DNA of 12,509 nucleotides from a virus (taxonomy: Duplodnaviria; Heunggongvirae; Uroviricota; Caudoviricetes), in IMG/VR virus record IMGVR_UViG_2609460344_000006, positions 1-12,509 of that record. One strand, given 5' to 3'. Made by a program: the position numbers. Shown piece by piece: positions 9,001-12,000 of this stretch; positions within the stretch are counted from its first letter, which is position 1; every line of letters begins with the position of its first letter.

Positions 9001-12000
9001 AGACTTTTTGTCAAACACATCTATCGCATCAAGCATTTTTTGCCCCGCAAGCTGCGGCAATGTCTCTAGATTCAAATGCCCAACCTCAACACCAGACTCT
9101 CTTTCGGCCAAATCAAGAAGCCAGATACGAAGCTCTTTAGCTATCTTGGTTCGCGACATCATGCCAATAAGGTGCGCCCCTCGAGGAGAAAACAATCGAA
9201 CCTGAGTGTAATCTATCATGCTGTTTTTATTACACTTCCTCACTTTGGTCACAATTGTCATGCTATCTGTAAACTCATCTTTATGACGATTGTAGATATT
9301 GGAAACCTTATTTGAATTCGCATAACCAAGCAGATCTGCCAATGCCTCAGCGGTAAACCAAATCTTCCCATCACCATTATCAAATGGAATCACGGTATTG
9401 TTTTTGAACGTCAGTTCGTTCATTGAGCGTACTCCTATAGAAATGAGCCTCGTTGCCCAGAAACGCCGCCCGCAGAGAGGTCGCCACCTATAACGACGGT
9501 TCTCCAAGGCTCATTTCTGTAAGGCTCTGCGATTTACATGCGCCGGGCATGGCGCAGATATAAAAAAACCACCAACGCGGTAAGCGCCAGTGGCTTATTG
9601 ATACAGCCTCAAATTAATTGCCAGCACCGAGGTACCCACCCACAGAAGTTTCCCCTCGTTTTGGGGTGAGCTAGTCAACATTTGCACTCCCCAGTTTTGG
9701 GGAGCTCAAACGTTCAACGATGATGCTGCAGATGCGTTCATACCGGCTTTACCTTTTAGTGATGAACCTTGTCACACAGGATTCCGGCCCACAGAAAGGC
9801 ACCGATCACCAAACCGGCATCCTCAAGGGTCATCCTGAAAGGTTCTGTGTTAATAAGTCGCGCGTGTGAAGCGCATTTACTGAGGACATAAAAAAGCCCC
9901 GCTTCTGCGAGGCATTTTCCTGAAAGTCACTTGTTAAATTTCAGTGAAGTTAAAATTATTTTAAGCACTGAGTCCTGATGTACTCCTGCAGGTAGTTAAC
10001 CTGCGCGGTTATCTTGTCGATTCCACTTCGGAGACGGTAATAATTGAGTTCAGCATCTGCTGTAAGTCTTGGGCTTTCTCCATCGCCCATGCTGCTGGCT
10101 CCGGTAGTTGACTTTGCACAGGTGGCGGCGACTTGCAGGCGCTTACGCCCAGCAGAAACATCAGCACGGAGACTTTCAATAGTCGCGTTAGCATCAGCAA
10201 GCTCCTTTGTGTATCTGGTGTCAAGTTCTGCTACATCACGTTGCCGCTTCTGCATATCAGCGATGATGGATGTGGCTTTATCGCGCTGCGCTTTGTAGGT
10301 AATCGCGTTATCACGGTAATGGTCTGTTGCCATCCACAGCGCACCACAGGCCACCAGCAGAATAACGATAAACGCGGAAAGCATTCGGTTTATGTTCACC
10401 CCAGCAACCCCGACGAAGACAACATCATCCAGGCCATGGAAAGAAAAAGAGCAACCAGCATTAGTGAAAATGAAATGCCGACAATTACACAGAGGATCTT
10501 CGCCAGCGTTATGAGTTTGTCTGACATGCTTAATCCTCCCTTCACGATTTCAACGCAATGACCAGTTTTGCCAGCCCATACAGCATCGGGGACACAGCAA
10601 CACCGACCGCCACCCACTTAATGGCAAAAGCCAGTGCTCTGCTGATGTCATCAGTTACAGGCGCTTTCAGTTCAAGGCCATTTTTCATAGTCAACCTCAA
10701 CAGAATTCGTTTATACTTCGCCATGTTCTCCCTTGCCTTACTCAAGGTCAGAAACACAAAACCCCGCTTGGTGCCAACAAACGGGGTTTTTACTTTTATT
10801 CACTTACGTTTCGCCAGTTCGCAGGATTTCGTGTTATCCGCCCGCGTGGCCATACCTTATTTTTCAGCAAAATATTCTGCTTATCTGTCGATTCCCCAGC
10901 ACGCCAGCGCGCTCTCCTGGTCACGACGGGATACCTGACCATAACAGTTATTTGAGCGGATACGGCAGTCTCTGCCACCGTCCTTAATCCACCAGCGAAT
11001 CGCCTCACACGCTCCCCTGCGATCACCTGCATTAATTCGTTTATAAAACGTCGACGGGAAACACTTACCGGGACCAATGTTGTACGGACAGAATGACGCG
11101 ATCCCCGCTTTCTGGGGTTCACTCAATGGCACTCTGATGTTTTTCTCCACCCATGCCAGCGCCTTATCACGCTCAATGGCGTTAACCCGGTCGCATTTTT
11201 CCTTCGACAACTTCATGCCCGGAACGACAGGTTTGCCATCCACCAGGATGGCACCGCGGCAGATGGTCCAGATACCCGCGCCATCACGGTATGCCGTGGT
11301 GTGGTTACCTTCCTTTTCATCCAGAAACTGGTCGAGGATTTCAGGCGCAGGCGCACCTGCGGCAATCAGCGCCAGAACGGCAGCCGACAGGCCGTATTTG
11401 ATTTTGGTGTTCATGGATATTTATCAGGGTTTATCGATTTCAAATCCCTGGATATGTTAAGTCTTCAGGCCAGCGGTGGAGTCTTCAGAGAACCAGTAAT
11501 TATTCCCGGTAGTTTTCCTCTGTAGGTTATCAACACATCCTGCGCCTCTAAAATTACGGGGCGCTTTTCCGGCAACGGACCATCCCCTTCACATAACCCG
11601 GCAGCAACATCCATGAAAAACTGCTTCGCCTGCTTTTTCGCCTCAGCTTCGTAAAACTCCAGCGTGGCATCTTCAGTACGGTCAAGACTAATCGCCACAT
11701 CTGGCAACAACAGTGACGGATACCCACCAATTTCCAGTGCCACAGTAACAGTAATCTTATTCGGGTAATTATTTATCCCTTTAACAACCAGTTCGTATTT
11801 TTTCTTCATCGCTTTACTCTCCCCGCGCCGCCTTACGACGGTCCTCTCTGATTTTGAAATACAGGTTAGTCAGATATGTCAGCAGCCCAAACAGCAGACT
11901 CCCCAGTACGCCTATTGCCGCCCACTGAGACGGGGAAACCCTGTCCAGCAACTGCAGGAACCAGTAGCCCGTTCCCACCGCTGACGTGGTGTATGACACA

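Follow-up and report, generated by a model that had tools for sequence, protein, structure and literature searches.

A number of phages control the synthesis of individual proteins through leaders in which an upstream complement pairs with the Shine-Dalgarno sequence of a gene that is needed in small amounts or at a set time. Well-known cases are the read-through transcripts of gene e, soc and I-TevI in T4, the lambda N leader and the leader of the MS2 maturation gene, in which folding is delayed. The translational riboswitches SAM-II, preQ1-II and ZTP work with a pseudoknot or with alternative folds. In lambdoid phages, late transcription is carried out by a Q-modified polymerase that reads through terminators, and accessory genes flanked by their own transcription signals are known as morons. 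The subject of this report is a stretch of 12,509 nucleotides (nt) of lambdoid prophage DNA (IMG/VR record IMGVR_UViG_2609460344_000006, positions 1 to 12,509; the whole stretch is termed the window in the following), in which the non-coding gap behind the lysis gene Rz holds two copies of a putative regulatory leader. Judged from its sequence, this leader is a highly structured part of the minus-strand mRNA with a length of about 125-130 nt, and it is conserved in relatives. A third, more divergent copy is located about 1.3 kb from the gap.

The leader family appears to be new, and in kind it appears to belong with the Shine-Dalgarno-sequestering phage leaders and the translational riboswitches. 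With Rfam 15, whose families include C4, AgvB, AsxR, IsrK and STnc100 as well as riboswitch and ribozyme classes, no match at the gathering threshold was obtained in the whole window, and at E<=10 the region 9350-10050 gave only weak unrelated matches that were mostly terminator-driven, none of them over the leader cores (trpB motif, 25.8 bits versus a gathering score of 59; istR, 20.4 versus 45). The leader was also not found by motif or keyword in the full-text literature, where subscription journals are thinly covered, nor in four large structured-RNA catalogues. An initial annotation of the window had already suspected a structured non-coding RNA in the gap. That view holds insofar as such an RNA is conserved in relatives and covaries in the covariation analysis, but the two elements to which function had been ascribed, a pair of hairpins and an open reading frame (ORF) of 25 amino acids (aa), do not turn out to be functional units.

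Leader copies and their architecture

The three leader copies of the window and their parts are the following.

9748-9877, minus strand: leader copy A, an orphan without a gene behind it (126 bits with the covariance model R1 described below; covariation)
Copy A, 5' parts, minus strand: P0 9860-9874; a5' 9843-9849; e5' 9835-9842; b5' 9824-9834; c5' 9814-9822; L1 9797-9813
Copy A, 3' parts, minus strand: a3' 9790-9796; GG and c3' 9779-9789; hinge 9772-9778; b3' 9761-9771; e3' with the Shine-Dalgarno sequence 9752-9759
9429-9558, minus strand: leader copy C, directly 5' of a BRO-N gene (R1 91.5 bits; by blastn, similar sequences precede rha, KilA-N and BRO genes in phi80, HK620 and others)
Copy C, 5' parts, minus strand: P0 9539-9556; a5' 9525-9531; e5' 9517-9524; b5' 9505-9516; c5' 9494-9504; L1 9479-9493
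Copy C, 3' parts, minus strand: a3' 9471-9478; c3' 9459-9468; b3' 9441-9452; e3' with the Shine-Dalgarno sequence 9432-9440
8057-8191, minus strand: leader copy K, the divergent third copy, directly 5' of a KilA-N gene (R1 63.7 bits; absent from the model seed)

Read from 5' to 3', the leader begins with the P0 hairpin (of the form GCGC-N7-GCGC), which is followed by a5' (7 nt), e5' (typically CCUUUCAG), b5', c5' and the loop L1. Then come a3' with an invariant GG, c3', a hinge (GUGNGA), b3' and e3' (typically CUAAAAGG), which holds the Shine-Dalgarno sequence, and after another 7-10 nt the ATG. Helices e, b and c make up one long interrupted helix, in whose basal part e the Shine-Dalgarno sequence is paired with an upstream CCUUU-type sequence, and helix a (7 base pairs, bp) is formed between the apical loop of c and the stretch immediately before e5', and crosses b and c. 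The strongest structures in the gap, missed in the initial annotation, are two long-range helices, for example that of 9436-9450 with 9507-9521 (15 nt, 93% complementary). A GCGCC-N6-GGCGC hairpin listed in the initial annotation is present at 9540-9555 and is the conserved P0 of copy C. In copy K, helix a reads CCACCGA/UCGGUGG and helix e ACCUG/CAGGU. One position of helix e is kept as a C.A mismatch in A-type and phi80-type copies (CCUUUCAG versus CUAAAAGG; in copy A of the window, 9837 with 9757), and a few leader types possess a perfect pair there (CCUUAUAG/CUAUAAGG and CCUUUCAG/CUGAAAGG).

Covariation of the helices

Exact-pattern scans of viral contigs yielded at least 120 loci for each of two conserved cores, and 51 diverse leader copies drawn from exact-pattern loci were combined in alignment A2. 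RNAalifold recovers P0, e, b and c on A2, with compensatory change in 14 of 24 pairs. The covariance model R1 comprises 127 positions and 30 pairs and leaves out helix a. When R1 was run with filters off over 24.6 kb of the prophage, copies A, C and K were found with the scores listed above (E 8e-15 for copy K), and the next best match reached 15.8 bits.

Two further alignments were used to follow the pairs, A3 with 75 distinct rows, to which helix a was added by hand and not fitted, and A7 with 54 distinct genome-derived rows. Standard pairs fill 95.8% of the cells in A3 and 94.9% in A7, and when the 3' partners are slid by 1-3 columns these values drop to 35-45% and 32-48%. Both sides have changed in 25 of 37 pairs of A3 (shuffles, 10.9 ± 2.1) and in 24 of 30 pairs of A7. 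The covariation score amounts to 0.187 in A3 versus 0.077 in shuffles and to 0.415 in A7 versus 0.188, a level that none of 500 shuffles matched for either alignment, and with slid partners it falls to 0.02-0.04 and 0.04-0.09, respectively. On the sense strand, 153 cells are G.U and 78 are A.C.

Helix e is paired in 98.6-98.9% of the cells (A3, A7) and follows the variants of the Shine-Dalgarno sequence, as seen in the combinations CCTTTCAG/CTAAAAGG, CCTTATAG/CTATAAGG, CCTTACAG/CTGTAGG and GCCTACAG/CTATAGGC and in the ACCTG/CAGGT of copy K. The Shine-Dalgarno sequence is hence held in a helix whose pairing is kept by compensatory change, as in leaders that sequester it, and the conserved fold, the covariation and the invariant unpaired nucleotides are structural features that a riboswitch would also have. 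Helix a, although outside the model, is 98% paired on A3, and one of its pairs occurs in four pair types. In phi80-type copies this helix lies one position off, and therefore column counting on A7 failed there and a register-free test was used, in which the 9 nt upstream of e5' are paired with an apical loop. The mean energy is -9.3 kcal/mol with the copy's own loop, -5.4 kcal/mol with loops of copies that have another a5', and -4.7 kcal/mol with shuffled loops (33 distinct a5' heptamers).

Spread of the leader

Among the loci collected from phage and viral DNA there are at least 261 R1 matches, which represent 143 distinct leader sequences. A loose pattern scan with one genome per species gave 120 loci, and R1 confirms 64 copies in about 58 of these loci, so that phage and gammaproteobacterial DNA together hold at least about 330 leader copies among the matches listed, nearly all with a Rha, KilA-N, Bro-N, Ant or HNH gene immediately behind. 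The confirmed genomic copies come nearly all from Enterobacterales (Pantoea, Erwinia, Xenorhabdus, Providencia, Edwardsiella, Serratia, Sodalis, Arsenophonus, Tatumella and others), and two are from Halomonadaceae (Halomonas halocynthiae and Vreelandella populi). Pattern matches in other phyla, which served as a specificity control, contain no R1 match.

Enterobacterial-type leaders were also seen on short contigs in assemblies of unrelated taxa, namely in a metagenome-assembled genome (MAG) of Cellvibrionaceae (L287), on a 700-nt Kocuria contig (L270), on a 392-nt contig of Xanthomonas pisi (L350), and in MAGs of Bacillota (L342) and Collinsella (L355), with some scores equal to those of the phi80 type. 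These copies are probably contamination or mis-binned phage DNA. Single phage contigs can carry two or three leader copies of different subtypes: one has R1 matches at 3837-3969, 1355-1489 and 9821-9944 (L085), and another has two (L002).

Genes behind the leader and terminators before it

The leader has a fixed strand and a fixed distance directly 5' of a start codon. Of 191 distinct downstream products, 183 have at least 60 aa, mostly 100-275 aa, and the ORF starts a few nt after the Shine-Dalgarno sequence. Only eight distinct contexts among the at least 261 matches are followed by an ORF of less than 60 aa, and four of these eight show the arrangement with an AntA-type gene remnant that is also found in the window. 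The downstream products fall into 33 clusters at 60% identity, for which Pfam gives Rha (7), KilA-N (7), HNH_3 with or without AP2 (7), ORF11CD3 (6), Bro-N (3), T5orf172/MUG113 (2), and P22_AR_N, ANT, AntA, P63C and TerB (1 each). One G+C-rich leader subtype is located before a gene for a TerB-domain protein (MFGIFGKK...). As the downstream proteins are unrelated to each other, an autoregulation by the product is unlikely.

In 125 of 181 distinct contexts, an intrinsic terminator as defined by a strict rule has its end 0-17 nt ahead of the model start, and most of the remaining contexts have a weaker or more distant hairpin with a T-run. Because terminators precede the leaders, including all three copies of the window, the recurring unit consists of terminator, leader and gene, placed in tandem between the lysis and the packaging genes.

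Predicted folding and proposed function

The minimum-energy folds of all three full-length window copies contain P0 and the long e+b+c helix with a paired Shine-Dalgarno sequence, at energies of -42.0, -52.5 and -52.3 kcal/mol. When the transcript is cut off directly behind a3', helix a appears with seven of seven pairs in the minimum-energy fold of each copy, and this helix encloses a hairpin d that is built from c5' and L1. Forcing helix a in the full-length RNA costs 1.2 kcal/mol in copy A and 12-13 kcal/mol in copies C and K. As helix a crosses b and c, two mutually exclusive folds are possible, of which a+d would leave the Shine-Dalgarno sequence free and e+b+c would close it.

In our view, the leader probably controls translation by sequestering the Shine-Dalgarno sequence of genes in tandem late-operon cassettes, perhaps via the two alternative folds. 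Each cassette would comprise an intrinsic terminator, the leader and an accessory gene, with several cassettes in tandem in the phage late operon. The terminator at its upstream end would block stray transcription in the lysogen, and only Q-antiterminated late transcripts would reach the gene. On the nascent transcript, helix a and the inner hairpin d would form first, with the Shine-Dalgarno sequence free, and synthesis of the 3' half would then allow the more stable e+b+c fold to close it. The outcome might be a short, transcription-coupled burst of translation, or a switch that is biased by some factor, and the early helix a could delay the closure or offer a point of regulation. In the window, copy A has lost its gene, of which only the decayed AntA remnant is left; copy C would serve the BRO-N gene and copy K the KilA-N gene. 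Such a control fits products that are harmful to the phage or the lysogen; the phi80 record, for example, gives rha as causing "DNA synthesis inhibition in IHF- hosts".

Several points weigh against this interpretation. The translational control is something that we infer from the anatomy of the leader alone. The single-sequence fold z-scores are modest (-1.0, -1.9 and, for copy K, -2.9), helix e by itself is weak (about -3.8 kcal/mol, usually with the conserved C.A mismatch), and hairpin d is weakly supported, as native pairs average -7.5 kcal/mol versus -5.6 kcal/mol for chimeras, 29% of which fold at least as well. Helix a could alternatively persist as a pseudoknot beside a bent b/c helix, and the lengths of the c+a and b+e stacks would by our estimate be compatible with this. 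Furthermore, P0, e, b and c were followed on alignments (A3 and A7) that had been fitted to the model, many of the aligned sequences are close relatives, and most were first gathered with exact patterns from conserved parts.

Alternative interpretations

A refinement of translational control that we regard as possible, if doubtful, is a riboswitch or a binding site for a protein or small RNA, in which one of the two folds would be favoured by a small molecule or by a factor from host or phage, and the translation of the antirepressor-like gene would be decided in this way. The unpaired GGGC after a3', the CUGKG of the hinge and the GGUG of L1 are invariant or nearly so across leader types, alternative pairings of the same segments are both supported (helix a and hairpin d), and the two folds of copy A differ by only 1.2 kcal/mol. 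The diversity of the downstream proteins likewise speaks for a common signal and against autoregulation. However, the genes in question are regulators and not enzymes or transporters, so that the context gives no hint of a ligand, the closed fold is 12-13 kcal/mol more stable in copies C and K, hairpin d already explains part of the L1 conservation, and no Rfam aptamer matches. It is a still more tentative thought that the leader represents a regulatory RNA of a new class, be it a riboswitch or a switch that responds to some factor, that is found in hundreds of temperate phages and senses a late-infection signal of host or phage. If this were true, such a switch, carried by Stx-converting (Stx, Shiga toxin), P22-like and phi80-like phages among others, would decide on the making of antirepressor-like proteins and homing endonucleases, and the rha/IHF phenotype of phi80 and P22, long unexplained, would become approachable at the level of RNA.

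Unlikely in our opinion is that e+b+c serves mainly as a processing and stability element, at which RNase III or RNase E would cut the late transcript and thereby free or destroy the downstream cistron. Interrupted helices of about 28 bp are typical RNase III substrates, and the lambda N leader and the inter-cistronic sites of T7 are analogues of such processing. With about 28 bp and internal loops, e+b+c has this size and form, and the leader always lies between cistrons of a long polycistronic late transcript. Nevertheless, processing leaves the conservation of helix a and of the loops unexplained, and the way in which the pairing tracks the Shine-Dalgarno variants points to a control of initiation.

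It is very improbable that the conserved block acts at the level of DNA without an RNA function, be it as a recombination linker or as the homing target of HNH endonucleases. The mosaic joints are indeed found inside the leader or at its ends, with the window combining a P22-type 5' part and a sequence that is common to another locus (L017), and HNH_3 endonucleases account for seven of the 33 downstream clusters. Against this stand dozens of compensatory double changes that keep Watson-Crick or G.U pairs, which a selection for a duplex DNA site would not do, as well as the fixed strand and start-codon distance and the excess of G.U over A.C cells on the sense strand. As the compensatory changes keep the pairing, a purely DNA-level role is unlikely to be realized here. 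The idea of CsrA sites, based on GGA motifs in A-type leaders, was rejected, as these motifs are absent from phi80-type leaders.

Extent and mosaic composition of the gap

The further features of the region are listed here.

9956-10384, minus strand: Rz (RefSeq annotation; stop codon 9956-9958)
9890-9913, minus strand (stem site 9896-9913): intrinsic terminator T1, directly after the Rz stop (GCCUCGC-AGAA-GCGGGGC, then U6; terminator scan)
9756-9833, minus strand: 25-aa ORF MTLEDAGLVIGAFLWAGILCDKVHH, contained entirely in leader copy A; the ATG is part of stem b
9597-9747, minus strand: what is left of a decayed AntA-type antirepressor gene (collinear with intact genes; only six sequences)
9706-9741, minus strand: 11-codon stub MNASAASSLNV* within the AntA remnant
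9687-9704, minus strand: hairpin 1, former coding sequence, within the AntA remnant
9652-9668, minus strand: hairpin 2, within the AntA remnant
9562-9596, minus strand (stem 9566-9596): intrinsic terminator T2 (terminator scan)
8851-9423, minus strand: BRO-N domain gene behind leader copy C (RefSeq annotation; Pfam Bro-N, E 6.5e-8)
8205-8228, minus strand (stem site 8211-8228): intrinsic terminator T3, upstream of leader copy K (terminator scan)
7498-8052, minus strand: KilA-N and ORF11CD3 gene behind leader copy K (RefSeq annotation; Pfam)

The window is identical to a lambdoid prophage in Escherichia coli strain cM8a (NZ_CM176589.1), and according to the RefSeq annotation all genes in the analysed part of the prophage are on the minus strand. 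Their order is holin, a YdfR-family gene, lysozyme, two small ORFs, Rz, the gap, the BRO-N gene, small ORFs, the KilA-N gene, an HNH endonuclease gene, terminase subunits and head genes. The portal gene (window about 1-1676; 1693-4277 of locus L003) is marked as frameshifted in RefSeq, and the prophage may therefore be defective. A non-coding gap after the lysis cassette is present as had been described, but the 445 bp given for it are too short: the BRO-N gene starts at ATG 9423 according to RefSeq, preceded by the Shine-Dalgarno sequence TAGGAG at 9432-9437, and not at TTG 9507, so that the gap comprises 9424-9955, i.e. 532 nt. The ORF check agrees with the initial annotation in finding no ORF of 60 aa or more within 9520-9955.

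The gap presents itself as a mosaic of three parts, namely T1 with leader copy A, the AntA-type gene remnant with T2, and leader copy C. Segment 9749-9955 is 88-99% identical to the post-Rz sequence of P22-like Salmonella phages, Stx-converting phages and more than 1000 E. coli genomes, in all of which rha comes next. About 100 nt of it, the part with the 25-aa ORF, are 100% identical in the window, one Salmonella phage and one Shigella phage, with diverging flanks. In BP-4795, ST2-8624 and Lys8385Vzw, the homologue of 9749-9955 stands directly 5' of an ant gene that is inserted between R and Rz, and because of this position the element travels with the downstream gene and not with Rz. Segment 9438-9570 (approximate limits) has about 80% identity to sequences directly 5' of rha, KilA-N or BRO-type genes, with relatives in phi80, HK620, HK639 and HK106 and in phages of Edwardsiella, Actinobacillus, Providencia and Klebsiella. 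The two segments share their architecture and differ in sequence, and they are best read as diverged copies of one element. For segment 9571-9748, no other match was found in the E. coli and phage collections.

A terminator scan of the gap found seven sites versus 0.8 expected. T1, T2 and T3 each consist of a G+C-rich stem-loop with a U-run directly after it on the transcribed strand. T1 is kept in VSe13, POCJ13, phi80 and P22, and the phi80 and ES18 records list a terminator at the homologous site. T2 shares between 26/28 and 44/45 identical positions with the sequence after intact AntA genes, and in locus L243 it stands directly before a C-type leader. The A7 run noted next to the GCGCC hairpin does not belong to that hairpin and is the U7 tail of this minus-strand terminator. 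The weak istR match is located on the plus strand at window 9789-9918 and is judged to be due to chance, as the bidirectional-looking terminator hairpin 9896-9913 drives it. No promoter-like site was found in 9300-10100 by a scan limited to the sigma-70 consensus, and a transfer RNA scan found none.

The AntA-type remnant and the paired hairpins

The 150 nt at 9597-9747 are a collinear, internally deleted pseudogene remnant of AntA type. A protein-level search for the origin of the remnant gave only a weak match (E 0.88), and it was a collinear comparison at the DNA level that led to AntA. Over its first 21 nt the remnant matches the beginning of intact genes (MNTS[VA]ASS...), and a 30-nt piece containing hairpin 1 agrees at 26 of 30 positions with a stretch from inside their coding sequence (TTTGAGCTCGCCAAAACGGGCGAGCGCAAA, encoding FELAKTGERK); an intact relative in locus L012 is an AntA protein by Pfam (E 2.6e-22). 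An intact AntA ORF is absent from 9597-9747, and all that remains of the gene is its initial codons, 30 nt from its interior and the terminator behind it. The segment is known from only six near-identical sequences and always lies between an A-type and a C-type leader. Within it, the minus strand of 9641-9647 reads CUUCUGUGGGUGGG, which is similar to UUCUGUGGGCC, the leader's a3'+GGGC segment. The similarity may be fortuitous or may be the trace of another rearrangement.

The paired hairpins of the initial annotation are present as CCCTCGTTTTGGGG (9653-9666) and CCCCAGTTTTGGGG (9689-9702), each of which forms a small hairpin, with a spacing of 36 nt instead of 37. Their reading as binding sites or a small RNA receives no support, because they lie in the AntA remnant, in six near-identical sequences and with no promoter-like site; a small-RNA gene, which would have its own promoter and terminator and be conserved as a unit, is not indicated here. 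Hairpin 2 has no match in intact AntA-type genes and may be a diverged local duplication of hairpin 1, and the 14-nt two-copy repeat taken alone is within chance expectation.

The 25-aa open reading frame

The minus-strand ORF 9756-9833 exists as annotated, and as annotated it lacks a clear ribosome-binding site, with no properly spaced Shine-Dalgarno sequence before ATG 9833. That it encodes a hydrophobic peptide could not be upheld, as presence, length and frame are not conserved. The ATG is missing at this position in 105 of 196 distinct leaders, and the others give 3-29 codons with frame changes in their middle parts that come from indels that are not multiples of three. As ATG, length and frame vary while the helices covary, it is RNA pairing and not coding that explains why the nucleotides of the ORF region are conserved. 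The conserved presence, length and frame together with a ribosome-binding site that are expected of a small protein or type I toxin are not found here.

Two related ideas were rejected. VSe13 and POCJ13 read CACTTAAAGG, which extends the ORF and could have indicated a truncated longer frame, but most homologues have the TAA of the window. A type I toxin/antitoxin pair, considered on account of the weak istR match, was discarded since the match is terminator-driven and the ORF is not conserved. The leader is overlapped by two "hypothetical proteins" that phage records place between Rz and rha, namely one of 63 aa in VSe13 (vse13_064; L001 1409-1600) and one of 44 aa in POCJ13 (L002 2470-2604), and both are probably annotation artefacts.

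That paired hairpins would be protein sites or a small RNA and the ORF a peptide such as a type I toxin can hardly be maintained, even though the hairpins are present, the pairing of hairpin 1 is perfect again in the window and, by a different change, in locus L074, and the ORF has a hydrophobic core in a region that is fully identical in a Salmonella and a Shigella phage, because hairpin 1 is former AntA coding sequence with a mismatch in four of the six copies and for the further reasons given above for hairpins and ORF. Hairpins and ORF are by-products, and the content of the gap is leader copies, a pseudogene remnant and two terminators.

Significance

Many prophages of medical relevance, among them Shiga-toxin phages and P22-like Salmonella phages, carry antirepressor-like genes such as rha, ant and those for KilA-N and Bro-N proteins in their late operons, and how these genes are controlled is poorly understood. 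With their ribosome-binding sites in one shared and strongly covarying leader of about 130 nt, these genes would have a point of control in common, and the leader is a compact object for experiments, for example with phi80 rha or an Stx-phage ant gene. The leader also accounts for the 100% identical "non-coding" blocks that are common to phages of Salmonella, Shigella and E. coli and for the mosaic joints that are located there.

Comparison with known systems

As in the T4, lambda N and MS2 leaders, an upstream complement pairs with the Shine-Dalgarno sequence of the downstream gene, and the helix a that is predicted to form first resembles the kinetic trap of the MS2 leader. Unlike these, the leader described here is larger, possesses five covarying helices and invariant loops, and is common to unrelated genes of many phages; we know of no sequence similarity between it and these leaders. 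In the T4 cases, an internal promoter gives rise to a shorter transcript with a free Shine-Dalgarno sequence, whereas no sigma-70 consensus site is found in the leader with a scan limited to sigma-70. With the SAM-II, preQ1-II and ZTP riboswitches it shares a conserved multi-helix 5' untranslated region, a long-range crossing helix, invariant unpaired nucleotides and a Shine-Dalgarno sequence within a helix. It differs from them in that Rfam gives no match and in that the downstream genes encode DNA-binding regulators and homing endonucleases and are not metabolic.

Control of antirepressor-type genes at the RNA level is also exerted by the c4 RNA of P1/P7 (Rfam C4), the sar RNA of P22 and IsrK of Gifsy-1, and AgvB, AsxR, the Pas small RNAs and STnc100 are further RNA elements on lambdoid prophages. 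All of these are trans-acting or antisense RNAs with their own promoter and terminator, whereas the leader is a cis-acting part of the mRNA, for which the sigma-70 scan found no promoter of its own. AgvB and AsxR are encoded 3' of PR', and PasA and PasC between the sialic acid esterase gene and the holin/lysozyme genes (PMC4104026; bioRxiv 10.64898/2026.05.13.724894). An identity with AgvB/AsxR or the Pas small RNAs was rejected, as these loci are upstream of the lysis genes and not after Rz. Like morons, the genes behind the leader are accessory genes between the lysis and packaging genes that are bounded by terminators and exchanged as modules. Unlike morons, they have the terminator upstream and no detectable promoter, and therefore their expression should depend on antiterminated late transcription together with the leader.

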